Assembly: GCA_964477765.1 (NCBI GenBank)
Contig: CAYZFV010000166.1
Coordinates: forward strand, 1-43,169
DNA from: an uncultured Candidatus Kuenenia sp.
GTDB taxonomy: Bacteria; Planctomycetota; Planctomycetia; Pirellulales; UBA1268
Direction: 5' to 3'
DNA: 43,169 nucleotides
Part shown: piece by piece, positions 1 through 41,850 of the stretch
How the letters are laid out: each line of letters begins with the position of its first letter
Position numbering within the stretch: position 1 is the first letter of the stretch
The notes under the pieces: model-generated
What the model was told of the DNA's origin: nothing
Database searches by the model: none
The model's input: only the letters and a program-made list of their open reading frames with translations
Translations under genes and position numbers: made by a program

Positions 1-12
1 TGGGGAAACAAC

Positions 13-76
13 AAGCACCGGGCGCGAGCCCGGTGGCTGTCTCCCGCAATAAGCACCGGGCGCGAGCCCGGTGGCT
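13..76 (+). repeat. Two tandem REP-like hairpin units, family A (13-38 and 51-76, 38-bp period)
   Basis: AAGCACCGGGCGCGAGCCCGGTGGCT occurs twice. It has a perfect 8-bp stem CACCGGGC/GCCCGGTG around a GCGA loop. The same unit recurs at least 8 more times in the window. Confidence 0.85.
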
Positions 77-105
77 TCTCTGGCAGAGCATCGGGTTTCT
101 GTAGG

Positions 106-1131
106 ATGTGTGAGATGCCCTCCGCGCCTGTAAACCGTGGTGACTTTCTCCTCGTGGCCTGCCAGGGAGGTGCCGAAGCGGCGTTAGGGAGTCGGCAGGA
201 AGCGGTTCTCCCACACATCGCCAAGGCCGCCTGGCGCCGAGGTGTGGTGACGTTTCGGCTCGGTGGCTTCGACCCGACCGACGACTTCTTCCCCGACCTC
301 ATTTTCGGCCGCACCTGCCTCCGCTCGCTCGGCCAGGTGACCGGAACCAGTGATGCCGAACGGGCCGCTGCCGGAGCCACGCTCATCGGCTCGGCTCTAT
401 GGGATGGCATTCATGTCTGGAGCCGCGACCCTCGCCAAGCCGTTGACGTGAATGCGATTCGTGCCGCCCTTTCCACCGCCTGCGGCTTCGCCGCTGCCGG
501 CCCGCCGATCGCCGCGCCGGGTGACCTCGTGCTCGACTGCATCGTCGACTCCCCCGATCGCTGGTGGATCGGCTGGCATCGGGCCGCCACGCCCCCAAGC
601 TGCTGGCCCGGTGGCGTCTATCCGGTGGCTCTTCCCGAGGGCAAGGTCTCACGGGCCTGGCTCAAGCTCGACGAGGCGATCGCGACCTTCGGCATCCCGT
701 TCCAGGCGGGCCAGCGGGTAATCGAACTGGGGGCCTCACCCGGCGGCGCCTGCCAGCGGCTCCTCGAGGCGGGGCTACAGGTTGTCGGCGTCGATCCCGC
801 GGTGGTCGACGAGCGGGTGAGCGATCATCCGCAGTTTGAACAGTGGCGGATGCGGGCCCGCGACGTGCGGCTCAAGGCGTTACGGGGGGTTCATTGGTTG
901 GTGGCCGACATGAATATCGACCCGACGAGCACGATGGAGTCGCTGGAGCGGGTTGTCACGACGCCCGGCGGCCGCGTGCAGGGAATCGTGGCCACTTTGA
1001 AGCTGCCCACATGGGAGCGGGCGGCCGATCTGCCCGGGTTTCTGGAGCAGTTTACAGCCTGGGGTTTTCGGCCCAACATGCGTCAGCTCTCGACTGGCGG
1101 TCGGGAAGTGTGTGTGTGGGCGGAGCGGTGA
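106..1131 (+). CDS. rlmM: RlmM-like / FtsJ-fold SAM-dependent rRNA ribose 2'-O-methyltransferase
   Basis: 341-aa ORF with AWLKLDEA, the SAM-binding loop VIELGASPGGACQRL, VADMNIDP and ATLKLP motifs in RlmM order. The start could be 106 or M4 at 115. Confidence 0.65.
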   Translation: MCEMPSAPVNRGDFLLVACQGGAEAALGSRQEAVLPHIAKAAWRRGVVTFRLGGFDPTDDFFPDLIFGRTCLRSLGQVTGTSDAERAAAGATLIGSALWDGIHVWSRDPRQAVDVNAIRAALSTACGFAAAGPPIAAPGDLVLDCIVDSPDRWWIGWHRAATPPSCWPGGVYPVALPEGKVSRAWLKLDEAIATFGIPFQAGQRVIELGASPGGACQRLLEAGLQVVGVDPAVVDERVSDHPQFEQWRMRARDVRLKALRGVHWLVADMNIDPTSTMESLERVVTTPGGRVQGIVATLKLPTWERAADLPGFLEQFTAWGFRPNMRQLSTGGREVCVWAER

Positions 1132-4420: not shown

Positions 4421-5038
4421 CTACTCCGCCGCAAGCTCCACAAAGCCCGTCTCGGGGATCCCGGCGCCGACAGCCACGCCAAGCCTCATATCGCTGTTCG
4501 CACGCTCTGGCAGCGGCTTGCCGTCGTTGCCCGTGCCGGTGATCTCCACGCGATAGAGCCCGCAGTTCACGCCCGAATACCGTGCGTCGGGAATCGTCAT
4601 GGCCACCACGCCATCGGCATCGGTCGTGCCCTCCGCCGCCTTCACGTCGCCCCCCATGAAGGGCTCCGGCACGAGCCGCACCACCGCCCCGGCAAGCGGC
4701 CGGCCTCGGTGGGTCGCGATCACCTCCAGCGGATTGATCGCCACCCGCGAATCACGCACCGCCTCGAGCCACGTGAGGAGTTCCTCCCGGCCCACGCCCC
4801 CGTCGCCGTCGGCATCAAACCGGCTCGCGGCTGCGGCGATCGCCGGCACAGTCTGCTGCTCGGCCGCCCGCAGGATGCCGTCGCCATCGGCGTCGGCCTG
4901 GCTGAAAACCGCCTCCACGATCGCCGCCGGATTGACCCGCGGTGCGGGCACCCGGGCCGGACGGCTGCTGCAGCCGGCGAGTGAGCCGACGAGGAGGGCG
5001 AAGGCAAGGCGAGCAGGGAAGGGTGGGTGAGCGGGCAT
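4421..5038 (-). CDS. Lipoprotein with two EF-hand Ca-binding loops
   Basis: Lipobox LVGSLAG-C, followed by canonical 12-residue loops DADGDGILRAAE and DADGDGGVGREE. Confidence 0.7.
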   Translation of the reverse strand: MPAHPPFPARLAFALLVGSLAGCSSRPARVPAPRVNPAAIVEAVFSQADADGDGILRAAEQQTVPAIAAAASRFDADGDGGVGREELLTWLEAVRDSRVAINPLEVIATHRGRPLAGAVVRLVPEPFMGGDVKAAEGTTDADGVVAMTIPDARYSGVNCGLYRVEITGTGNDGKPLPERANSDMRLGVAVGAGIPETGFVELAAE

Positions 5039-5064
5039 AGGAGACCTCGTTCGTGTTTTCGAGA

Positions 5065-5090
5065 GACATGCTGAAGCCTGTCCTACTTTT
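5065..5090 (+). repeat. Family-1 hairpin repeat abutting a stop codon
   Basis: GACATGCTGAAGCCTGTCCTACTTTT matches unit 1911-1936 at 25/26 positions. The CTA at 5083-5085 is the TAG stop of the minus-strand gene 5083-7665. Confidence 0.8.
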
Positions 5091-7665
5091 CAAAAAACAA
5101 TTTGCTCCGGGCGATCTCGTGGATGAGCGACCGGATGCCGTGGCCGGTGTCGGCCGTGGCGGCCACGATGCGGTCGATCTCGGCGCGGTCGGCAAACAAC
5201 GGCTCGGCGCCCGTTGCATACATCACCATCTGGGTGACAAACGCCCGCGCGAGCCGCTCAGGCTGGCTCGCAAGGATCGCGCGAAACGCCTCAAACCCAT
5301 CAAACGACCCACCGTCGGGCATCATGCCAGAGGCGTCAACGGCCGCGGCGAGTCGAAACCGTGGCTGGCTGCCGTCGAAGAGTAACTCTGTGGCTGCCGC
5401 GCCCTGGCGGCGCGAACGATACCGCTCCCGCCAGCCGCCGATCACGTCAAACGACTCCAAGGCGTAGCCGGGAGGGTCGATGGAGCGATGGCAGGTGGCG
5501 CAGGCCGCGTCGGCCTGATGCCGCAGGAGCAGCTCACGAATGGTCGTGGCCCCGGCCGTATCGGGCTCGACCGCCGGCACCGCCGGTGGTGGCGGAGGCA
5601 CCTCCTCACCGAGAATCCGTTCGGTCACGAACACACCGCGAACCACCGGCGACGTCGTCGTGCCATTGGCGGTTACCTTGAGCACCGCCCCCTGCGTGAG
5701 CACGCCGCCGCGATGGCTCTCCGGTGGCAATGCCACCCGCCGGATCCCGCTGCCCGTCACCTTCTCGACGTTGCCGGTGAGGCCATAGTGCTGGGCCAGT
5801 CGCTCGTTGAGCATGGCAAACTCGGTCTTCACCAGGCTCGTAATCGGCTGGTTGGTGTCGACCAGCTCACGGAAAAATGCCCGGCTCTCGGCCAGCAGCG
5901 AATTTTTCAGGTAGCCCTGCTGAAACTCCGGATACAAAAATCGGTCGGGGTCGGTGTCGTTGATGTCGGCGAGCTTGAGCCACTGGTTTGTGAAGTCGGT
6001 GATGAATCGGTCCGACCGTGGGTCGGCGAGCAGGCGATCGATCTGGGCGGCCACCGCGTCGGCATCACCCAGGCCGTCGGTGGCGGCGATCGCGAGCAGG
6101 GCGTCGTCCGGCGGGCCGTTCCAGAGCCAGAGGGCCAGCCGCGTGGCGATGGCATGCGAGTCGAGTCGCCCCGGAGCTTCTTGCCGAAACAAAAACTGCG
6201 GTGCGGTGAGCACGGCCCGATAGGCCTGCCGCATCGCCTCCTCGAAGCCGTCGCCGGCAACGAGGCGATCCGAGGCGATCTTCAGGTATGGATCGATCTC
6301 CCCGGCAGTGATCGGGCGGCGAAAGGCCCGCGGCAGAAACGCCTCCAGGAGTCGCCGGGCAGCGGCCGGCGGATCGTCGCTGAAGACCGTCTCGAGCGGC
6401 CGCTTCCATTCCTCCCGGGGCAGGTCTTTCTTCTGCGGCGAGGTCCAGTTGGCCAGCCGCAGTGGCCGCCGCCGAGGCGGGCGGCTGACTGAGTCAGGAG
6501 GCAGCGGCCTGATCGGCAGGTCGCCGAACAGCCGGCGATGGCTTTCGGGAGGCCATGCGTCATGCAGCGGGCCTTCGATCTCGATCCAGTCGATCGCAAT
6601 CCCGGTGCGCTGATCACGAGGCCTGCGGGAGGTGAGCGACGCGACATCGAAGAGGGGCGGGGCGGGGCCCATCAGCCAGGCCTCGACTTCATGCACGAGC
6701 GGCTCACCCGGCGGGGCGTCGAGATATCGCGATCTGCCGTCGCCAGGATCAAGCGATGCCACCTCGGTCTTCGGTGACGGTTCGATACGGCCCTTGTTCC
6801 AGACAAAACTCCACACGGGCAACCGCACGCGATAGCGGCCAGGAAAGGGGGGCGTGAAGCTGACAAACTTTTCATGGCCACCAAAGTTGGGCGTGAAGAA
6901 GCCCACGGTCGCCCCCTCCGCCAAGGCGGCCGTCGCGAGCGCAGGGTCGAGTGGCGGATCGTCCGGATCCTTGCGGCCATCGCCATACCAGCGGGATTCC
7001 GGCTGACCGTTGCGGAGCAAGACCGCCGCCCCGCTTTGCAGGTTCTGCCGAAACTTGAGCATCGTCGCCAGATCAAACCGTTTCACCAGCACCGGCGGCG
7101 GCTCGGACCGGGTGGCGATCGCCATGTCGAGCGCCCGGTCGGCAGCGGCGAGGTATTGCCGAATCTGGATGGAGGAGAGGTCGAGGCCGTCGCCGAGCTT
7201 GTCGAAGCCGTGGCGGGCGCCGTCTTCCGGGAGAAGTGCGAGCACGTCGAGCGCCGGCACGGCGAGCACTTCCCGCAGGGCGTTTTCATACTCACTGGCG
7301 GTCAGTCGACGCAGCGGAGCCCGGCCCTCCGCTCGCACGCGGTCGCGATCCGCCGCGGTCATCCACTCTGCCAGCCCGGCGATAAACGCCTGCTGGTCTG
7401 CCACTGGCGGCCGGGGCTCTTCCTCCGGCGGCATTTCCCCTCTCGCAATCCGGTCGTGAATCCGCAGCCACCGCTCCCGGGCATCGCGATCGGAGAGATC
7501 CCGCGGCAGGGCCACGAGATCGAGCCCCCCTTCGCCACCAGGCCCGGTATGACACGCCAGACAATGCTCGTTGAGAAACAGCTCATGCACCGGTGCGGCT
7601 GCCGCATGCAAGCCGGCGGCCGTGAAGGCCCAGGCGGTGCAGCTGAAAATCAATCCTCGCTTCAT
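5083..7665 (-). CDS. Planctomycete PSD-type protein (DUF1587/1592/1595/1588/1585-like architecture) with heme-c CxxCH motif
   Basis: CLACH sits near the N-terminus and CATCHRSIDPPGYALESFD near the C-terminus. A start at 7665 gives the signal peptide MKRGLIFSCTAWAFTAAGLHAAAAP and an ATGA overlap with the upstream stop (7662-7665). Confidence 0.8.
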   Translation of the reverse strand: MKRGLIFSCTAWAFTAAGLHAAAAPVHELFLNEHCLACHTGPGGEGGLDLVALPRDLSDRDARERWLRIHDRIARGEMPPEEEPRPPVADQQAFIAGLAEWMTAADRDRVRAEGRAPLRRLTASEYENALREVLAVPALDVLALLPEDGARHGFDKLGDGLDLSSIQIRQYLAAADRALDMAIATRSEPPPVLVKRFDLATMLKFRQNLQSGAAVLLRNGQPESRWYGDGRKDPDDPPLDPALATAALAEGATVGFFTPNFGGHEKFVSFTPPFPGRYRVRLPVWSFVWNKGRIEPSPKTEVASLDPGDGRSRYLDAPPGEPLVHEVEAWLMGPAPPLFDVASLTSRRPRDQRTGIAIDWIEIEGPLHDAWPPESHRRLFGDLPIRPLPPDSVSRPPRRRPLRLANWTSPQKKDLPREEWKRPLETVFSDDPPAAARRLLEAFLPRAFRRPITAGEIDPYLKIASDRLVAGDGFEEAMRQAYRAVLTAPQFLFRQEAPGRLDSHAIATRLALWLWNGPPDDALLAIAATDGLGDADAVAAQIDRLLADPRSDRFITDFTNQWLKLADINDTDPDRFLYPEFQQGYLKNSLLAESRAFFRELVDTNQPITSLVKTEFAMLNERLAQHYGLTGNVEKVTGSGIRRVALPPESHRGGVLTQGAVLKVTANGTTTSPVVRGVFVTERILGEEVPPPPPAVPAVEPDTAGATTIRELLLRHQADAACATCHRSIDPPGYALESFDVIGGWRERYRSRRQGAAATELLFDGSQPRFRLAAAVDASGMMPDGGSFDGFEAFRAILASQPERLARAFVTQMVMYATGAEPLFADRAEIDRIVAATADTGHGIRSLIHEIARSKLFFEK

Positions 7666-26873: not shown

Positions 26874-28739
26874 CTACTCCTTGTCCAGCACAAAGCAGAC
26901 GAGGTCGCCCATCGGGCTTTCGATCGGCGGTTTCGTGTAGCCAAGCTGCTTCAGGGTTTCCTCGATGCCCTTACCACCGTCGGGATACCCGTTGCGGTTC
27001 ACATAGAGCCCCGAGAAGCCAAGCTCTCGGAGTTTCTGCACGCCGGCTTCGAAGTTTCGCGGATTGAGCTGGATTCGTTGCTTTTGCTGATCCAGGGCGG
27101 CGCCCGTAAAGGCCGCCTGCTCCCAGAGCTTCTGCCAGTTTCCACCTTTTCGACCCACGTTGCCTCCCACGGAGTATCGCAGCGAGGTGCTATAAAGCGA
27201 AGGCCTGAAATGATCGGACGCCGAGACGCCGGGCACCGGTCCGGCCGTTGTGACGGGCAGCTGAAACACCATGGCGTCTTTGGGCAGCGCAGCCTCCATG
27301 TTCGCCGTAAATTCCCGGTCGGCAGCCACCTGCGCCGCGATGGTCGCTTGCTGGTCGGCCGTGGGGGCCCGCGGCACTTGATCCCAGAGGATCACGGTGC
27401 ACATTCCCAAACAGGCGGTGGCCACGAGGATCCGCGATGTCTCCGCGGGAAACCGCTCCCGCATCTTTTCTTGCCAGCCCGTCAGTCGCTCCGCCGCGTA
27501 GAGCAGCACGATCGCGAGGATCACCACGCCATAGCGACACGTTGTGCGAAACAGCGTGAATCCGGTGAACGCAGCCACAGTCGCATTCAGCCCGCCGGTC
27601 GTGGCCATGAGCACGATCCAGAGCACCTGCCAGGCCGCCATTGGAATCTGCGACTCTCGTCGCTCGGCACCTATGCGAATAGCCGCCCACACGAGCGTCA
27701 GGAGCGAAGCGATGCCAAAGAGCCCGAGATACACGCATCCTTCCTCGTCGAGCAGCACAGAGGCCTCGCGATGTTGCGAGCCGAAGCGGGCAAATTCAGA
27801 GCACCGGTGCGTGATCCACGGCACGAACATATCAACGATCTTGAAGGCGTAGATATCAAGCCATCGATAGGCGCGGTCCACAAACGGGCTCTCGGTCGGC
27901 GGGCCGTAGATCCAGCGGTAGGAAAGCGTGTCGAGGTTGCTGATGAAAAAGGCGAGCGCGACGGCGCCCACGATTGCCATGGAGGGCAGGGCCGCCGCCC
28001 ACGATCGCTTGCGAAGCGCCAGCAATCCGCCACCGAGTAGCGCGAGTTGGCAGAAAACATTGCCAAAATAAGGATTCTGCAGCCCGGTCACGAAGCCAAT
28101 CGCCATCGCCTGCCAGAAGCGTCGCGAATTGATCTCTAGCCCCGGATCTGTCGACACCCACCGCCACACGGGCAGAAACAGCGGCACATACCAGACGTAT
28201 TGGCAAGTGTTGTGGTGAGGCGATTGGGCAAACTGATACGGCGCCAAGCCGAATGCCAATGCCGTGACGAATGCCCACGCCCTCCCGCACCGATTCAGTC
28301 GAGCGACAGCATAAAAGGTAAATCCTGCAGCAATATGTCCGAAAAGAACCCCCAGATTGAAGCCCGGGAACAACCCAAAAAATCGCACCATCAGCGCAAA
28401 AAAAGCCATGATCGGCTCGTCGGCGGAAAGTGCGTCAGTCCATTGAGCTCCATATGGCGCGCCGAACTTCGCACTTGCTTTCCACATGAATGGGGGGAAA
28501 TCACCTTCGGCCACCGCGCGAACCATGGCGCTGCCGCCTAAAAAATCGCTGTAGACGGGGTCCAGATAGGTCGTCGGCAAACCCCACGCCGATGCCGTCC
28601 ACTTGCCATGCGCCGCGCACCAAGCGAGCGTAGTTGTAGCGACAAGCAAGGCGATTGGAAGCAAGGCGATCGGTGAGGCATCTCCGCGTTTCACCGAACA
28701 GGAATCTCGCCTGCCAAAAAACTTATGGAAGAGTGTCAT
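26874..28739 (-). CDS. Large polytopic membrane protein with C-terminal soluble domain; possible GT-C-type glycosyltransferase
   Basis: 621 aa with more than 10 hydrophobic helices in the first ~450 aa. The C-terminal domain ends ...GFSGLYVNRNGYPDGGKGIEETLKQLGY...MGDLVCFVLDKE. The family was not recognised. Confidence 0.45.
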   Translation of the reverse strand: MTLFHKFFGRRDSCSVKRGDASPIALLPIALLVATTTLAWCAAHGKWTASAWGLPTTYLDPVYSDFLGGSAMVRAVAEGDFPPFMWKASAKFGAPYGAQWTDALSADEPIMAFFALMVRFFGLFPGFNLGVLFGHIAAGFTFYAVARLNRCGRAWAFVTALAFGLAPYQFAQSPHHNTCQYVWYVPLFLPVWRWVSTDPGLEINSRRFWQAMAIGFVTGLQNPYFGNVFCQLALLGGGLLALRKRSWAAALPSMAIVGAVALAFFISNLDTLSYRWIYGPPTESPFVDRAYRWLDIYAFKIVDMFVPWITHRCSEFARFGSQHREASVLLDEEGCVYLGLFGIASLLTLVWAAIRIGAERRESQIPMAAWQVLWIVLMATTGGLNATVAAFTGFTLFRTTCRYGVVILAIVLLYAAERLTGWQEKMRERFPAETSRILVATACLGMCTVILWDQVPRAPTADQQATIAAQVAADREFTANMEAALPKDAMVFQLPVTTAGPVPGVSASDHFRPSLYSTSLRYSVGGNVGRKGGNWQKLWEQAAFTGAALDQQKQRIQLNPRNFEAGVQKLRELGFSGLYVNRNGYPDGGKGIEETLKQLGYTKPPIESPMGDLVCFVLDKE

Positions 28740-36941: not shown

Positions 36942-37746
36942 CGTCACAACCAAGAACGAGAGCAGGAATATCGTCGCGTGCCTGGAGAGCGTGCGACGGC
37001 AGACATTTTCAGACTACGAGATCATCGTCGTCGACAACGCCTCCACCGACGATACCAAGGATCTCGCCAGACGCTACACGGAGAAGGTTTTTGACCTCGG
37101 CCCGGAACGGAGCGCCCAGCGAAACTTCGGGGTGTCGCGGGCCACGGGCACCTACATTCTTTATCTCGATGCCGACATGATCCTTGAGCCGGACGTGGTG
37201 GCGGAATGCGTCGATATCTGCCGGAACAACCCCCGGGTCGCCGGCATCTACATCCCGGAGCAGATCGCGGGCACGGGGTTTTGGATCAAGGTGCGGGCGT
37301 TCGAACGCGGCTTTTACAACGGGACGGTGATCGATGCGGTGCGGTTCTTGCCGAAGCGGGTATTCGACCAAGTCGGCGGGTTTGACACCAGCATGTGCGG
37401 CCCAGAAGACTGGGACTTCGACAAGAAAATCCGCATGGCGGGCGATGTCGTCGTGGCCCGGTCGAAGGTGATGCACAATGAAGGCGCGTTCAGCCTGTCA
37501 CGGTACCTCGCCAAGAAGGCCTATTACGCCGGGAGTTTTGACGCGTATGTGCGCCGCTGGGGAGCCACTGACCCAGACGTGAGGAAACAGCTGGGGCCGT
37601 TCTACCGCTATGTCGGCGTGTTCGTGGAACGGGGCAAGTTCTGGCGGCTGCTGCGGCATCCGATCCTCGCGGCCGGCATGTATTGGCTGCGGCTGATGGT
37701 GGGCCTGCGGTATCTGCGGGTGAAGATGGCAAGCCATGCTCGTTGA
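36922..37746 (+). CDS. Glycosyltransferase family 2
   Basis: MPIVSIIVTTKNESRNI, VVDNASTDDT and YLDADM. Confidence 0.85.
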   Translation: MPIVSIIVTTKNESRNIVACLESVRRQTFSDYEIIVVDNASTDDTKDLARRYTEKVFDLGPERSAQRNFGVSRATGTYILYLDADMILEPDVVAECVDICRNNPRVAGIYIPEQIAGTGFWIKVRAFERGFYNGTVIDAVRFLPKRVFDQVGGFDTSMCGPEDWDFDKKIRMAGDVVVARSKVMHNEGAFSLSRYLAKKAYYAGSFDAYVRRWGATDPDVRKQLGPFYRYVGVFVERGKFWRLLRHPILAAGMYWLRLMVGLRYLRVKMASHAR

Positions 37747-38173
37747 TGGAGCGCCGGAAGCGAAACCGCTCGATCTCAAGGGAGACGTTTTTGCCAGAGT
37801 ATGCGTGGCCCGAAAAGCGCTCCTGTCGCTGCCCTGTGTCGTCCAAAGGATGACCACGTGGCGTGCGAATCTCCACTCTTCACAAGGCGCCAGCGGCGAA
37901 GTGCTCAACTGGCAGAAGGCAGTGCAGGAACGGCTCTTTCGCGGCGCGGAAATCGATCGGCAGCGGGAGGAGATTCGGCTCTTTGAGGCCAATGCGGCAC
38001 AGGCCGTCGATGAGATGAAGGCCAAGGGCTTCGCCGCGCTGTATGTGAATCGCAACGGCTATCCCGATGGCGCGAAGGGGCTGCGCGACGCGCTCGCAAA
38101 GCTCGGCTACACCGAAGTGATCGACAGCCCCGCCGGCGACCTGATGGCCGTTGTACTGCGAAAGGGCGGCTGA
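37736..38173 (+). pseudogene. C-terminal remnant of a paralog of the 621-aa membrane protein (26874-28739)
   Basis: GFAALYVNRNGYPDGAKGLRDALAKLGY...AGDLMAVVLRKGG aligns with GFSGLYVNRNGYPDGGKGIEETLKQLGY...MGDLVCFVLDKE. The entire TM region is absent and there is no signal peptide. Confidence 0.6.
38130..38173 (+). repeat. 44-bp direct repeat, left copy (3' end of the remnant gene)
   Basis: CCGCCGGCGACCTGATGGCCGTTGTACTGCGAAAGGGCGGCTGA matches 38810-38853 at 40/44 positions. Confidence 0.9.
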
Positions 38174-38185
38174 CCGGCATGTGGT

Positions 38186-38201
38186 GCAGGCTTTAGCCTG
38201 C
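38186..38201 (+). repeat. Family-1-like hairpin
   Basis: GCAGGC-TTTA-GCCTGC lies 13 nt after the stop at 38173. Confidence 0.6.
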
Positions 38202-38298
38202 GAGTATGGCCGCCTTTCCAAGCAAAACCTTGACACCTGGGTGTTCGCCCGTATACCCTAAATGCCTGAAGGCAAATCCAACGAAATCGAGGTGAGCG

Positions 38299-38529
38299 AT
38301 GGAAATCGAAAGTTTTATTGACACCTTGAACCCCGAGGAGCAGCAGGCAGCCTTTGATCTGCTTTGGCAACGCTTGGCCGCTGATTCGCGAAAATTGGAT
38401 TCTCCCGCTTGGCACGGAGAACTGCTTGCATACCGTGCAGCGAATCCTAGTGATCAGCCCAATATGTCTGTCGCCGAGGCGCGGAACGCAGTGAGACGGA
38501 TTGTCGATGAACGTAGAAGTTCGCCATGA
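38299..38529 (+). CDS. Addiction-module antitoxin (Unstab_antitox-like)
   Basis: MEIESFIDTLNPEEQQAAFDLLWQRLAAD...SPAWHGELLAYR. Confidence 0.65.
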   Translation: MEIESFIDTLNPEEQQAAFDLLWQRLAADSRKLDSPAWHGELLAYRAANPSDQPNMSVAEARNAVRRIVDERRSSP

Positions 38530-38824
38530 GGCACATTTGGATATCGCCGAAGGCGTTGCCTTCTACGACCAGCAAGGTTTCGGCGCTGGTGACTATTTTT
38601 ACCAACGGATCTTCGAGGACATTGAATCACTGGGTGAGACGGCTGGCATTCATGAAATCTATTTTGGTTACCATCGCAAAATCGCAAGTCGCCATCCTTT
38701 TCTGATTTACTACCGTTTGGTCACAACAGGTGTCGAAGTAGTCGCTGTCCTTGATGGACGGTCGCGGCCCTCCGATATCGACGCGTTGCTCCAACGCAGG
38801 CAGCCCACTCCGCCGGCGACCTGA
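38501..38824 (+). CDS. ParE/RelE-superfamily toxin
   Basis: VRHEAHLDIAEGVAFYD...RKIASRHPFLIYYRLVTTGVEVVAVLDGRSRP. The stop codon lies inside the right 44-bp repeat. Confidence 0.7.
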   Translation: MSMNVEVRHEAHLDIAEGVAFYDQQGFGAGDYFYQRIFEDIESLGETAGIHEIYFGYHRKIASRHPFLIYYRLVTTGVEVVAVLDGRSRPSDIDALLQRRQPTPPAT

Positions 38825-38853
38825 TGGCCGTGGTGCTGCGAAAGGGCGAGTGA
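38810..38853 (+). repeat. 44-bp direct repeat, right copy
   Basis: CCGCCGGCGACCTGATGGCCGTGGTGCTGCGAAAGGGCGAGTGA still reads PAGDLMAVVLRKGE-stop in frame. Confidence 0.9.
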
Positions 38854-38860
38854 TGCCCAG

Positions 38861-39005
38861 CAAGCCGCAGGGCGCGAGCCCGCGGGCCAACGCGCCACCC
38901 GACGCCGGCGCAGTCCACCGGGCTCGCGCCTCGGTGCTTGCTGGTGGAGGGCTCGCGCCCTGCGGTTGTTGGCGGGACGAGCCACCAGGCTTGCGCCCGG
39001 TGCTT
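38861..39005. repeat. Cluster of four REP-like hairpins (B+, A-, B- partial, A-)
   Basis: The units are at 38861-38888, 38913-38939, 38947-38965 and 38980-39005. Confidence 0.85.
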
Positions 39006-39147
39006 GTTGGCGGGGCGATTCCGGGGCTTGCCCGCAACGGCACCGTGCGGATCAACCGCCCGGCAGGGTGGACGGCATTTTGCTCGGCAGAGATGACCTG
39101 AGGACGAACGGCTGACATCTTGCTGCACGCAGAATACATATATATGC

Positions 39148-39387
39148 ATGAGGACGACGATTGACATCAACGATCGCCTGCTTGCCGCTGCCCGCCGCCG
39201 CGCCACCGAAGACGGCACCACGCTCACGGCGTTTATTGAGCACGCCCTTGCCGCGTGCCTGACCCGCCACCCAGCTTCCGCCAAGCCCTGTCGACTCGCC
39301 TGGAAGACCCACCGCGGCCGGACGCTACCCGGCGTGGATGTGGCTGACCGCGACCGTCTCTTCGAGCAGATGGAAGGGCGGTCGTGA
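39148..39387 (+). CDS. vapB: VapB-type antitoxin
   Basis: MRTTIDINDRLLAAARRRATEDGTTLTAFIEHAL. GTGA overlap with the PIN gene. Confidence 0.75.
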   Translation: MRTTIDINDRLLAAARRRATEDGTTLTAFIEHALAACLTRHPASAKPCRLAWKTHRGRTLPGVDVADRDRLFEQMEGRS

Positions 39388-39827
39388 TCGCCGTCGATAC
39401 CAACATCCTCATCTACGCCAATCGTGAAGAGTCGATTTCCCATGCCGCTGCGTTGAAGGCCTTGCGGTTCTTGGCCGAGCGTGATGAGGCTTGGGCGATC
39501 CCGGTTTTCTGTATCGATGAGTTTCTCCGGGTTGTCTCGCATGATCGCCTGTTCGATCCGCCGACGCCCGTCCTGCATGCGCTGGATTCGCTCGAGTCGC
39601 TGCTTTCCAGCCCGTCAGTGCGGCTCTTGATACCAGGCGACCACTACCTGCGGCTGCTGCGGACCCTGGCTGAGGAGTCGGGCGTGCGGGGCAATCTGAT
39701 TTTCGATGCCCAGATTGCTGCGGTCTGCCTCGAGCATGGAGCGACCATGCTGCTGACAGAAGATCGAGACTTCACGAGATTCCGGAACCTGAAGCCACTG
39801 TTGCTGCAAGAGTTTCACGACCGTTGA
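39384..39827 (+). CDS. vapC: PIN-domain ribonuclease toxin
   Basis: IAVDTNILIYA, FDAQIAAVC and LLTEDRDFTRF. GTG start. Confidence 0.85.
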   Translation: MIAVDTNILIYANREESISHAAALKALRFLAERDEAWAIPVFCIDEFLRVVSHDRLFDPPTPVLHALDSLESLLSSPSVRLLIPGDHYLRLLRTLAEESGVRGNLIFDAQIAAVCLEHGATMLLTEDRDFTRFRNLKPLLLQEFHDR

Positions 39828-39852
39828 CGGACCGCCTACGGGCCCGCTTCAG

Positions 39853-39905
39853 CAAGCCGAAGGACGCGAGCCTCCCCGGCAAGCCGCAGGGCGCAAGCCC
39901 GCGGG
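39853..39905 (+). repeat. REP family B: one degenerate plus one good unit
   Basis: CAAGCCGAAGGACGCGAGCCTCCCCGG is the degenerate unit. AAGCCGCAGGGCGCAAGCCCGCGGG (39881-39905) is the good one. Confidence 0.75.
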
Positions 39906-40107
39906 ACGACCCACCAGCCGGCCATCTATGCGACGCCAGCGGCAGACTCGTGAAGGGGCAACGGATCGTGGCCGAGCCGACGGGGACGCGGGCTTGACGA
40001 GAATGGTGTTCATAAGTCCACATTTGGGGATCGTCCTGGTTGGTTTCGAGCGTGACAGAGAGGCGGCCCTGTCCTACACTCATCTCCCCACGCGAGGGGA
40101 TTTTCTG

Positions 40108-41850
40108 ATGAACAAGGAAAGGTTGCTCGAACGACTGCTCCAGGCGATCGTGCTTGTGCTCGCCGGCCTGTGGATCTACTCGCCCACCTACCATGGCAAA
40201 TGGTTGTGGGACGACGACAGCCTTGTCACCAAAAACCCCGAGGTTTTGTCGGGTTCGCTCGAAGGCCTTTTCGCGATCTGGATGAACCCATCCGGCTTCG
40301 ATTATTTCCCCCTTACGTATTCAGCCCTCTGGATGCAGGCACTATTTTTCGGCACTCAGCCCACTGGCTACCACATCGTCACAATCCTGCTCCATCTCAC
40401 CAGTGGCCTCCTGCTCTGGTGGCTCCTGGCCAGAATCAATGTCCCGGGCGCCTGGGTGGCGTCGCTGATCTTCACCATCCATCCGGTCTGCGTGGAGAGC
40501 GTCGCCTGGATTTCAGAAACCAAGAATACGCTGTCGCTCGTGTTCTTTCTGGGCTCCTGCATCTTCTGGGTGAAGCAAGACGACGAGACGCCAGGACGCC
40601 GCCGTGAACGTCTCTACCTCGCATCGCTCGTCCTGTTTCTTTTGGCGATGCTCGCCAAGACATCGGTCGTGGCCATGCCCCTGTTGACGCTCCTTTACGC
40701 CTGGTGGAAACGAAATACCGTCACCAGTCAGGACATCATCCGGGCTTCCCCCATGTTTTTGATCTCTCTCGTGCTGGGCATCATCACGATCCAATATCAA
40801 TGGGGTCGCGCCGTCGGCTCGGAAACGTTTCCCATCGGCGGCATCGGATCCCGACTCGCGATCGCTGGCATGGCAATGATGTTTTATCTGGCCACGACCA
40901 TCTGGCCGATCCGACTCCTGCCGATCTACCCACGGTGGGATGTCGATCCACCCAAGGCCTGGCAATTTTTGCCGTGGCTCCTCGTCGGTGCCGGGATTTT
41001 CTGGCTCTGGAAACATCGGGACACGACGTGGGGCCGCGCTGCGATCCTTGCCTTCGGCTTCTTTCTCCTCATGATCTCGCCGGTCCTCGGATTCGTGGAC
41101 TTTTCTTTCATGCGATTGACGTGGGTCGCCGACCACTTTCTCTACCTCCCCATGATCGGACCGATCGCGCTGCTGGTGGCCGCTGCGACGACGTGGATTG
41201 AAACACGAGACGACCAGACGCGGGCCGTGTTTACCGCGCTGGTCGCCGGCATCATGCTCTTTCTGGGTCTGAACTCGTTTTTCTATGCAAACAAGTGGAT
41301 TGATGAGGAGCACCTCTGGGAGCACACGCTCGCGATCAACCCAGACGCGTGGCAGGCCCACAGCCGGGTGGGAGTCCAAAAACTCAACCGCAATGACATC
41401 GAGGGGGCGTATTACCACTTCACCGAGGCTGCGCGGCTACGACCCGATGTGGGCGAGACCATGAACAACCTTGCTCTGATTCTGGCAAGAAAGGGCCGGC
41501 CGGATGAGGCGATCGCGGCCTATGAGCGCGCGGTGGCGATCTCCCCCGTACCCGCCATACGGGCGAATCTTGCCGATCTTTGCCTTGAACTGGGGCACTA
41601 CGCCGAGGCTCGATTCCACTATGAGGAACTCCTCAAGGCCATGCCAGACAATCCTTTCGTGCTCCATAAGCATGCCTTGGCCCTCTTCAATCTCGGGGAG
41701 AAGGACATGGCAATCCGGGAATTCCGCCGCGTGCTCGAGATCGCCCCCAGCCACAAGGAAGCAGCGGAAAGCCTGAAAGTAGCGGTTGCCAAACGGGCGG
41801 CTGAAACCGCGTCCGAGACCAAAGAAAAACCCTCCGAGGCGATTGAGTGA
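40108..41850 (+). CDS. TMTC-like GT-C glycosyltransferase with C-terminal TPR repeats (paralog 1)
   Basis: Start at MNKERLLERLLQAIVLVLAG. Acidic loop KWLWDDDSLV, a DUF1736-like IHPVCVESVAWISETKNTLS block, about 10 TM segments, then TPR repeats (AYYHFTEAARLRPD..., AIAAYERAVAISP...). Confidence 0.75.
   Translation: MNKERLLERLLQAIVLVLAGLWIYSPTYHGKWLWDDDSLVTKNPEVLSGSLEGLFAIWMNPSGFDYFPLTYSALWMQALFFGTQPTGYHIVTILLHLTSGLLLWWLLARINVPGAWVASLIFTIHPVCVESVAWISETKNTLSLVFFLGSCIFWVKQDDETPGRRRERLYLASLVLFLLAMLAKTSVVAMPLLTLLYAWWKRNTVTSQDIIRASPMFLISLVLGIITIQYQWGRAVGSETFPIGGIGSRLAIAGMAMMFYLATTIWPIRLLPIYPRWDVDPPKAWQFLPWLLVGAGIFWLWKHRDTTWGRAAILAFGFFLLMISPVLGFVDFSFMRLTWVADHFLYLPMIGPIALLVAAATTWIETRDDQTRAVFTALVAGIMLFLGLNSFFYANKWIDEEHLWEHTLAINPDAWQAHSRVGVQKLNRNDIEGAYYHFTEAARLRPDVGETMNNLALILARKGRPDEAIAAYERAVAISPVPAIRANLADLCLELGHYAEARFHYEELLKAMPDNPFVLHKHALALFNLGEKDMAIREFRRVLEIAPSHKEAAESLKVAVAKRAAETASETKEKPSEAIE

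Follow-up and report, generated by a model that had tools for sequence, protein, structure and literature searches.

A ParE-type toxin-antitoxin cassette beside a duplicated gene end in a planctomycete genome, a probable scar of homology-anchored recombination at a local hotspot

Homology-facilitated illegitimate recombination (HFIR), in which one flank of an incoming fragment is anchored by homology, the other is joined at a short GC-rich microhomology, and foreign DNA without homology is trapped, has been described in Acinetobacter, Streptococcus pneumoniae, Pseudomonas stutzeri and E. coli conjugation (PMC5361080, PMC3240628). It is rare in the species in which it has been measured, and it has been proposed to account for the arrays of displaced modules and orphaned 3′ regions at T6SS, Rhs and CDI loci (PMC5361080). 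In such arrays, including the orphan immunity genes of the Vibrio cholerae T6SS and the orphan 3′ regions of Rhs/CDI loci, new modules push older ones downstream (PMC5361080). Small cargo also occupies conserved positions in the minimal mobile elements (MMEs) of Neisseria, where one pair of flanking genes holds different cargo in each strain as the result of a double homologous crossover that leaves no duplicated flank, and in sedentary chromosomal integrons, whose toxin-antitoxin (TA) cassettes are compact two-gene units carrying their own leader and attC site (PMC4889954, PMC13108822). Here we compare with these systems a locus in the Pirellulaceae genome of an uncultured Candidatus Kuenenia sp. 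at which a putative ParE-type TA pair lies between two copies of a gene end.

The window, by which we mean the whole analyzed stretch of 43,169 nucleotides, contains the following features at and around this locus, with the conserved gene next to the cassette termed gene X.

26874-28739, reverse strand: gene of a 621-aa membrane protein, a paralog of gene X
37736-38173, forward strand: remnant (pseudogene) of gene X, paralogous to the 621-aa membrane protein
38130-38173, forward strand: left repeat copy, the last 14 codons and TGA of gene X
38185-38202, forward strand: REP-type hairpin (GCAGGCT/AGCCTGC) at the left edge of the inserted DNA
38219-38298, forward strand: cassette leader, shared with genome G048, whose 89% identical block begins at 38219
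38299-38529, forward strand: putative antitoxin, 76 aa, lying upstream of the toxin gene and overlapping it at each of the 24 related loci
38507-38824, forward strand: predicted ParE-fold toxin, starting at ATG 38507 (the ORF lister had placed the start at TTG 38501)
38810-38853, forward strand: right repeat copy, probably the resident 3′ end of gene X in a displaced position, still joined to its native downstream DNA
38856-39020, no strand assigned: REP cluster of long imperfect palindromes, resident and also found at the empty site
39148-39827, forward strand: VapBC cassette, the second in the hotspot (VapB 39148-39387, VapC PIN toxin 39384-39827)
39848-39920: another REP, 3′ of VapBC
40108-41850, forward strand: TPR-repeat membrane protein gene (Pfam TPR matches), the conserved right flank of the hotspot

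The two repeat copies are spaced 680 bp apart and agree at 40 of 44 positions, the value given in the first-pass annotation, whereas the best direct 44-mer match within 2 kb reached only 28-30/44 in 10 first-order Markov randomisations of the window. They represent the last 14 codons and stop of gene X. Both copies do read in frame to the stop, as had been claimed: the left one, terminating ORF 37736-38173, as PAGDLMAVVLRKGG-stop and the right one, which opens with the codon TCC, not CCC, as SAGDLMAVVLRKGE-stop. Their first 22 nt are identical, and the mismatches at repeat positions 23, 26, 40 and 41 comprise two synonymous third-position changes and two changes in the last codon. Because the region 37701-38990/39200, both copies included, is 100% identical in six independently assembled contigs (from four JGI metagenomes, 3300077186, 3300001533, 3300077098 and 3300077563, and two Logan runs, SRR1179191 and SRR2989655), the repeat structure is not an assembly artefact. 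A search of the genome itself gave no further copies of the 44-mer or of the cassette, with only the REP part being multi-copy.

The ORF that ends in the left repeat is, as had been proposed, a remnant of a paralog of the 621-aa protein, its last 87 aa being 48% identical to residues 534-620 (BLASTP). Gene X belongs to no family in NCBIfam or Pfam. A near full-length ortholog (73% aa identity) lies on contig C126 of genome G005, and an intact one is present in L096 (metagenome contig Ga0136656_1056499, 91% nt identity). Relative to L096, the remnant keeps only 37819-37862 (77% nt identity to L096 101-144) and 37871-38173 (90.8% to L096 450-753), having lost its whole 5′ part and ∼300 bp between the retained segments. 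L096 also presents the empty site, in which the stop codon of gene X is followed directly by the REP cluster; this is the uninterrupted form for which a search of relatives had been suggested. Positions 38810-38955 are collinear with L096 709-881, across the stop codon and into the REP cluster. From this empty site it follows that the insert measures 680 bp, made up of the REP hairpin, the TA pair and one gene-end copy. Homology-anchored integration would be expected to leave just such an empty site in a relative, where the right copy still has its native surroundings. The empty site came solely from the metagenome scan, and a DNA search of 40 relatives returned neither the cassette nor, apart from the GT2 gene, any close synteny.

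Direct repeats immediately flanking a discrete insert would also be produced by transposition with a 44-bp target-site duplication, which we regard as extremely improbable. The insert contains TA ORFs only, with neither a transposase gene nor terminal inverted repeats, and 44 bp is far longer than known target-site duplications. Moreover, the copies differ at four sites even though the six population samples show no variation from the window (100% identity), and the repeat boundary coincides with a stop codon.

The inserted genes resemble ParDE type II systems (5czf, 3kxe, 6xrw) in combining a small toxin with a small, overlapping antitoxin gene upstream and in the predicted toxin fold. In sequence searches the toxin matched Pfam ParE_toxin (PF05016) with E = 0.0043 and 18.0 bits, under the curated cut-off of 23, and ParE2 in a PDB profile search with E = 0.006; it had no match in NCBIfam. 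An AF2 model (pLDDT 87.7, pTM 0.81) predicts a ParE fold (β-α-α-β3-4): the top Foldseek matches were ParE2/ParE with TM 0.75-0.81, and the first 17 PDB matches were ParE-type toxin chains (TM 0.60-0.81, probability 1.00). Unlike ParDE, the putative toxin falls under the Pfam threshold and carries a 7-aa stop-loss tail, and the antitoxin weakly resembles PF09720, not ParD (a sub-threshold match with E = 0.015 and 15.7 bits against a cut-off of 23.3). The tail is explained by the ancestral stop at 38801-38803, which is TAG in G048 and TAA in most other homologs but has become CAG in the window, extending the toxin by seven C-terminal codons. The first-pass annotation correctly placed the toxin stop (TGA 38822-38824) within the right repeat, where it falls only because of this change. 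An exact-protein look-up of the 107-aa toxin found no match, probably because gene callers use other starts; the antitoxin look-up did match. The leader holds a TTGACA (38230-38235) and a TATACC (38252-38257) separated by a 16-nt spacer, a pair spotted by eye that may constitute a candidate promoter, and a consensus promoter/terminator scan of 38050-39200 called nothing. We presume that the cassette works as a standard type II module for addiction or defence.

A copy of 38219-38814 with 88.9% nt identity resides in G048, a genome of another genus (g3), and it too occupies the junction of gene X and the TPR gene. Since the cassette is 89% identical between the two genomes and the flanks only about 68% (67-70% nt for the TPR genes, with ∼54% aa identity at the gene X end), the cassette is judged to be imported and foreign to this genome. 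The block shared with G048 ends 6-11 nt past the ancestral toxin stop and overlaps the repeat start by CGCC/CCGCC (38810-38814). A foreign insert (89% versus 67-70%) with a joint at such a short microhomology (CGCC/CCGCC) is consistent with homology-anchored integration.

These comparisons also bear on a purely local history, in which the right copy would be all that survives of a second gene X, either a tandem paralog or an in-situ duplicate, after a deletion that reached as far as the end of the TA cassette. Gene X does have paralogs, large deletions have removed the 5′ part and ∼300 bp of the remnant, and a right boundary at the stop codon would be predicted here as well. We nonetheless judge a local origin unlikely, given that L096, G005 and G011 each have a single gene X, with the REP cluster or the TPR gene coming next and no second copy. 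It would further require a deletion ending 6 nt after the ancestral toxin stop, exactly where the G048 cassette homology ends, and would leave aside that the cassette is clearly imported (89% nt identity versus ∼68% for the flanks). The counter-case named in the first-pass annotation, that a larger degraded paralog ends in the right copy, is opposed both by the G048 cassette homology, which reaches 38809-38814, and by the 20 intact toxin homologs, all of which end in RR followed by the stop.

More distant Pirellulaceae copies of the cassette lie in same-orientation arrays between attC-like imperfect palindromes, seven of them within 8.3 kb in L057 and four in L063, and an ACGAAC...GTT palindrome follows the toxin stop in L051, L053, L056-L058 and L063. 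These sites were called with a paired-motif scan, a looser motif scan giving noise in a GC-rich genome. The same paired-motif scan gave no attC-like site near the locus in either the window or the G048 contig; scattered single matches in the genome, including two elsewhere in the window, were regarded as chance. A GTTCG in the window leader (38242-38246) aligns with the 3′ core of the attC-like site upstream of the cassette in other genomes. The cassette family thus shares with integron TA cassettes its position between attC-like palindromes in other Pirellulaceae and its compact two-gene form with a leader, whereas the window copy lacks both an attC and a nearby integrase and has gene-end duplicates on its flanks instead; it is probably an integron-type cassette stripped of attC. 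Transfer of the cassette by an IntI-type recombinase, from an array to a secondary site in the end of gene X, would fit with the attC-flanked copies in several other Pirellulaceae loci and with the integron integrases known in Planctomycetes (PMC2426708). We consider it very unlikely, however, as no attC-like site directly follows the toxin coding region in the window, where the gene X repeat begins 6 nt after the ancestral stop, and as ∼25 nt preceding the GTTCG core are retained in the window copy, a stretch unexpected in an excised cassette if this tentative alignment holds. In addition, IntI recombination makes no 44-bp duplication.

Two kinds of REP element border the TA genes. The hairpin at 38185-38202, whose presence between the repeats had been remarked on, has a 7-bp stem (38185-38191/38196-38202) with a fold of −9.7 kcal/mol (z = −2.25) and belongs to a second REP family of the genus, with related copies in G010 and upstream of the G048 cassette. 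The cluster at 38856-39020 folds with −35.7 kcal/mol (z = −3.15), and its type-1 REP unit has 35 matches in this genome and many in congeners. Both are multi-copy intergenic imperfect palindromes of the REP or REPIN-like kind.

Gene-3′-end duplicates surround inserted genes at at least three other loci in the genome, in agreement with the suggestion that further inserts bounded by duplicated gene termini might be found. At the GT2 island an insert is bounded by a duplicated gene terminus, on contig C170 a sigma-factor gene end is duplicated around an XRE/BrnT-like pair, and on contig C201 a chemoreceptor-like gene end is duplicated, the duplicated pieces varying in length from 35 to 531 bp. 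Repeat pairs on C138 (a repeat within one gene), C324, C28 and C77 (contig edge) were judged unrelated. The first-pass annotation had seen a signature of gene-end duplication, TA cassette and REP cluster; the duplication recurs at these loci, but the REP cluster was already present at the empty site and is therefore no part of the insertion signature. Likewise, its proposal of a common process that targets gene ends holds insofar as the pattern recurs, with the apparent targeting better read as a by-product. We found no enzyme that recognises gene ends. A conserved gene end may simply be the last stretch of homology between donor and recipient, and only joints that keep a complete gene copy would survive.

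Site-specific integration offers a different account of the gene-end boundary, in which a small integrative element would insert specifically at the 3′ end of gene X and bring along a substitute for that end, the 44-bp copies corresponding to attL and attR. The integrase gene of the element would since have been lost, or would act in trans, as for a cis-mobilisable element. Although the identical first 22 nt of the repeat and the adjacency of the cassette to gene X in two genera could be taken in its favor, we find it improbable. There is no tyrosine recombinase gene on the 43-kb contig: PF00589 matched three integrases in this 56%-complete genome, on contigs C284, C280 and C75, and none on the window contig, C166. 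The 680-bp insert holds the TA pair only, and the 44-bp sequence is absent from all 24 related cassette loci; where these have flanking repeats, the repeats are attC-like, except in G048, whose repeats correspond to its own gene X end. Furthermore, the duplicated pieces in G048, at the GT2 island, on C170 and on C201 differ in length and end points (35-531 bp), and the repeat ends exactly at the stop codon, as allelic homology predicts.

With moderate confidence, we interpret the structure as the trace left in a local hotspot by a recombination event anchored by gene-end homology, with its second joint formed illegitimately at the CGCC microhomology; this is the most likely reading, a new kind of mobile element being the less likely one. 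The incoming fragment would have come from a related strain and would have consisted of the 3′ part of gene X, the REP hairpin and the ParE-type TA cassette. Its left side would have undergone homologous recombination within gene X, and its right end, just past the toxin stop, would have been joined illegitimately at CGCC, at a point 44 bp before the stop codon of the resident gene X. An identical product would result if the fragment were circularised and then integrated by a single crossover, and the one-ended illegitimate and the circular single-crossover routes cannot be told apart. In either case, the product would be gene X with the incoming 3′ end, followed by the cassette, the displaced last 44 bp of the resident gene and the native REP cluster. 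Donor-recipient homology would run out at the stop codon, which would account for the exact right boundary of the repeat, and the illegitimate joint would account for its start at 38810. The four mismatches would reflect allelic differences between donor and recipient. The left copy has three private differences (positions 23, 26 and 41) relative to the right copy and L096, and the right copy has one private difference and shares GTG GTG with L096, suggesting that the left copy is probably the one that arrived with the cassette. The polarity calls at these four sites are weak because L096 is 91% identical and not a direct ancestor, and its own final 26 nt are unusually diverged (7/26). The copies diverge from each other at 4/44 positions; in the neighbouring gene body the window differs from L096 at 6/216 (Fisher p = 0.07, a comparison of few differences and low power). 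No donor genome joining the cassette to a gene X allele identical to the left copy was found, and natural transformation is, to our knowledge, not established for Pirellulaceae. The proposed recombination resembles HFIR in that one flank is anchored by homology, here in the 3′ part of gene X, the other joint lies at a short GC-rich microhomology, and foreign DNA without homology is trapped. It differs from HFIR in that it is known here from a presumed product and not from an observed process, and in that the illegitimate joint would lie upstream of the end of the anchor, with 44 bp duplicated and no resident DNA deleted.

The gene X 3′ end of G048 itself is present at its locus in three copies (146-328 bp), among which the cassette lies, in an array of three gene X ends and at least four cassettes. 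As in the displaced-module arrays at T6SS, Rhs and CDI loci, new modules would push older ones downstream, and leftover 3′ ends of the anchor gene would mark earlier events; here, however, the host is a planctomycete, type II TA pairs take the place of effector-immunity pairs as cargo, and the cargo has no relation to the anchor gene. Fragments B and C of G048 have the same left end, which is easier to reconcile with propagation by plain homologous recombination from one existing copy to another than with separate illegitimate joints. Duplicated anchor-gene fragments might even act as portable homology, with host RecA looping out circles of a gene end plus a cassette that re-insert at the anchor gene. 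We consider this rather doubtful, but it would explain the common left end of B and C, the three to four relics of one gene that alternate with TA pairs at two loci, and the occurrence of one cassette at the same locus in two genera, and it would amount to an integrase-free, integron-like cassette array.

The interval between gene X and the TPR gene is, on these comparisons, best described as a recombination hotspot that collects TA cassettes. The TPR gene lies 3′ of gene X in G005 and G011 and downstream of the cassette array in G048. Only 53 nt separate the two genes in G005, which has no cargo there, and L096 carries a PF09720/ParE module, the window ParE and VapBC, and G048 several cassettes plus an IS66. 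The VapBC assignment in the window rests on matches to PF09957 (E = 2.9e-6), PF01850 (E = 1.7e-15) and TIGR00028 (96.5 bits). One conserved flank pair with different cargo in each strain recalls the Neisseria MMEs, although partial flank duplicates remain here that a classic MME would not leave. The locus illustrates well a hotspot of a known kind and reveals no new enzyme or element class; what makes it a clean natural example is that the empty and the filled site, the foreign cassette and a joint that can still be recognised are preserved together. It suggests that small TA modules that have lost their mobility functions can still cross genera by means of only host recombination and a conserved neighbour gene. 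For the annotation of Planctomycetes, short orphan gene ends beside TA pairs may be read as successive hotspot insertions, the newest being the copy closest to the intact gene. The TPR gene also follows the GT2 gene in G007 and on contig C188 of G005, and it is preceded by a conserved leader of approximately 45 nt.

The first-pass annotation read 38130-38853 as a ParE-like toxin-antitoxin (TA) cassette inserted together with a duplicated gene end, and our analysis supports this reading with two corrections, which concern the REP cluster and the idea that gene ends are targeted. The two direct repeats (left copy, 38130-38173; right copy, 38810-38853) are spaced 680 bp apart and agree at 40 of 44 positions, as annotated, differing at repeat positions 23, 26, 40 and 41; the best pair of 44-mers up to 2 kb apart in 10 first-order Markov randomizations of the window matched at 30 of 44. 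Both copies run in frame to a stop and end exactly at its TGA codon, again as described, the left as the end of an ORF at 37736-38173 (..SPAGDLMAVVLRKGG-stop) and the right as SAGDLMAVVLRKGE-stop, and the sequences leftward of the two copies are unrelated to each other. Searching for exact matches to the antitoxin protein gave 12 contigs. Six were fetched (four from JGI metagenomes and two from Logan runs), and each matches the window at 100% identity from 37701 to at least 38990, both copies included, which rules out a MAG assembly artifact as the origin of the repeat structure.

The uninterrupted form, in which the gene 3′ end is followed by the REP cluster, is present in one near relative, the only one in which the empty site was seen. 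This 1407-bp metagenome contig (L096, Ga0136656_1056499) carries an open frame of 249 codons belonging to gene X, the family of the 621-aa membrane protein, and after the gene X stop comes the REP cluster directly. Window 37871-38174 is collinear with L096 450-753 and window 38810-38955, the right copy plus REP cluster, with L096 709-881. Relative to L096, the gain in the window amounts to exactly 680 bp: the REP-type hairpin at 38185-38202, then the TA cassette, plus a second copy of the terminal 44 bp. The REP cluster, which had been counted as part of the insertion signature, is thus resident DNA already found at the empty site. With L096 as outgroup, three of the four differences between the copies are private to the left and one to the right; two are synonymous and two fall in the last codon.

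The left copy had been assigned to the remnant of a paralog of the 621-aa protein, and this is borne out: over its final 87 residues, ORF 37736-38173 shares 48% identity with that protein (residues 534-620), whose family has no match in Pfam or NCBIfam and whose gene lies elsewhere in the window:

26874-28739, minus strand, 621-aa membrane protein, gene X family member

The congener G005 carries a near full-length gene X ortholog (contig C126; 73% amino acid identity over the query). Compared with the L096 ortholog (90.8% nucleotide identity), the window retains only 37819-37862 and 37871-38173; having lost the intervening stretch of roughly 300 bp and the entire 5′ part of the gene, the ORF is a true gene X remnant, fused to the GT2 gene end. 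In the interval 37725-37870, the remnant begins before the GT2 gene has reached its stop (37744-37746). In the relative G007 and on G005 contig C188, TPR genes come immediately after this GT2 gene, and gene X lies upstream of a second TPR cluster on G005 contig C126, an arrangement suggesting that a deletion or rearrangement merged two clusters in the window's lineage. Window and L096 gene X differ at 6 of 216 positions in 37933-38148 and at 7 of 26 in the last 26 nt (38149-38174 versus L096 728-753), four of the seven being common to both window copies; in L096, too, the extreme 3′ end of gene X seems to have had a separate recombination history.

The junction between gene X and the TPR gene has received further insertions. 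The gene X stop of G005 lies just 53 nt ahead of the TPR-membrane-protein gene, and a stretch of about 45 nt from this leader can still be recognized upstream of the window TPR gene at 40108. The window's VapBC genes (39148-39827) and the REPs around them have therefore been inserted here as well. L096 shows yet another module at this position, with a PF09720 antitoxin (E = 8e-14) and a ParE-like start.

The toxin scores 18 bits against Pfam ParE, below the threshold of 23 bits; a profile of 21 toxin sequences matches Mycobacterium tuberculosis ParE2 in the PDB (E = 0.006), and an AlphaFold model (pLDDT 87.7) has TM scores of 0.75 to 0.81 to ParE2/ParE structures. Its 76-aa upstream partner resembles PF09720 only weakly and accompanies the toxin at every related locus. 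Scanning one genome per species yielded 24 further cassette copies (toxin identity 73-92%), nearly all in MAGs of Pirellulaceae and other Planctomycetota. Cassettes at 86% amino acid identity also occur on short contigs in bins of Hyphomonas sp. (L058, 2.2 kb) and Candidatus Paceibacterota (L059, 6.2 kb), for which mis-binning seems more likely than cross-phylum transfer. The toxin stop does lie inside the right repeat, as annotated. The 20 intact homologs all terminate with ..RR-stop, and because the window has CAG at 38801-38803 where the genome G048 has TAG, its toxin gains seven codons, up to the TGA in the repeat; with the original stop lost, this position is an accident and no design feature. 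Two other toxin genes are broken, by an in-frame stop in L063 (4001-4300) and by a frameshift in L070 (4001-4296); together with the stop loss they show decay of the cassette in some hosts.

In all but one of the 24 copies, nucleotide homology to the window is confined to the coding part (about 38285-38796). An imperfect palindrome, ACGAAC...GTT, follows the toxin stop in several other genomes (L051, L053, L056-L058 and L063), and similar palindromes in the same orientation (ACGAAC...CACCCNAGTNGCCG...CGGCNACNGGGTGAT...GTTCG) separate neighboring small gene pairs, seven of them within 8.3 kb in L057 and four in L063.

Palindrome arrays with the ParE-type cassette in other Pirellulaceae MAGs
L057, 1311-7644
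L063, 1025-5943
L051, 3636-4395
L052, 3522-4497

The palindromes resemble attC sites, and the arrays look like a chromosomal integron or CALIN rich in TA cassettes. Planctomycetes are known to have integron integrases (PMC2426708). On its upstream side, the window copy keeps a GTTCG that aligns tentatively with the 3′ core of the palindrome found before the cassette in other genomes, together with the approximately 25 nt ahead of this GTTCG; no attC-like palindrome lies downstream of the toxin, and the contig has no integrase gene. Insertion here by an integron integrase is very unlikely.

The exceptional copy, which also shares the leader, belongs to G048, a genome of another genus (g3) in the same family, and is 88.9% identical over window 38219-38814. 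On an 8319-bp contig (C132), it sits downstream of the gene X homolog that G048 itself carries:

G048 contig C132, coordinates with gene X on the plus strand
1-234, plus strand, gene X end A, followed by a REP hairpin
376-971, ParE cassette, followed by a DUF4926 gene, IS66 and a VapBC-like pair
5025-5301, plus strand, gene X end B, followed by a HicB-type module
6003-6330, plus strand, gene X end C, followed by two small genes and the TPR-membrane-protein gene

Pairwise identity among the three ends is 93-94%, and the left end point of B coincides with that of C. Since the flanking TPR genes of window and G048 are only 67-70% identical in nucleotides, and the gene X ends about 54% in amino acids, the cassette exchange is far younger than the divergence of the hosts, and the cassette arrived at the homologous place.

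The first-pass annotation had likened the locus to the GT2 island and proposed a common process targeting gene ends. When the 2.8-Mb assembly (56% complete) was compared with itself for low-copy direct repeats spaced 250-4000 bp, other TA modules bounded by duplicated gene termini did emerge. The GT2 island has partial copies of 531, 411 and 171 nt interleaved with five TA-like pairs, a repeat map in keeping with an ordinary recombination hotspot; at C170:3047-4500, a decayed copy of a sigma-70 region-4 gene 3′ end lies beyond an inverted XRE/BrnT-like pair; and at C201:999-2321, 35 bp from the end of a chemoreceptor-like gene occur on both sides of a DUF4143 gene adjoining a MazEF-like pair (identified by eye). 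Candidates are C204:29168-31555, where a truncated duplicate of a Fic-like gene flanks a Uma2-type-nuclease-like gene (both named by eye), and C269:8740-10098, where a 78-nt repeat stands on both sides of three TA-like modules. Within the C170 orphan copy there is a deletion, along with short tandem expansions, (GATCCTGC)x4 and (GGGCCTGC)x3. Recurrence and insertion are therefore supported; "targeting" is most simply a by-product of where homology ends and of the survival of products that keep a complete gene.

We consider homology-anchored integration the probable origin of the insert. A fragment comprising the gene X 3′ part, hairpin and cassette would have come from a related strain (we found no such donor) and integrated by a homology anchor, the second joint being illegitimate; beyond the stop codon donor and recipient would no longer match, the former continuing into the cassette and the latter into the REP cluster. 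Single-crossover integration of a circular gene end plus cassette would give the same product, and circles formed between gene ends already duplicated would fit the common end point of G048 B and C. Either route would account for the resident gene X end, shifted downstream and still attached to its native flank; for the edge at the stop codon; for the repeat's left edge, which falls 6 nt past the cassette's original stop and overlaps the end of the G048-shared block by CGCC/CCGCC; for the four differences; and for duplicates elsewhere that vary in length and end points, along with a window contig free of integrase genes and an insert lacking a transposase and terminal inverted repeats. Site-specific integration, or alternatively deletion of a tandem paralog or duplication in situ, is in each case unlikely. 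Transposition is scarcely credible for an insert with neither a transposase nor terminal inverted repeats. That duplicated ends make cassettes mobile through host recombination alone is a minority possibility.

Homology-facilitated illegitimate recombination is among the nearest described processes and has been proposed for T6SS, Rhs and CDI loci, with their arrays of displaced modules and orphaned 3′ regions (PMC5361080). Those arrays, and minimal mobile elements with strain-variable cargo between conserved flanks, are near parallels, and the gene X/TPR locus is a well-documented case of an already known kind of hotspot. Unlike the described parallels, it carries type II TA cassettes that apparently come from integrons, lies in another host phylum and regularly retains the duplicated ends of its anchor gene.
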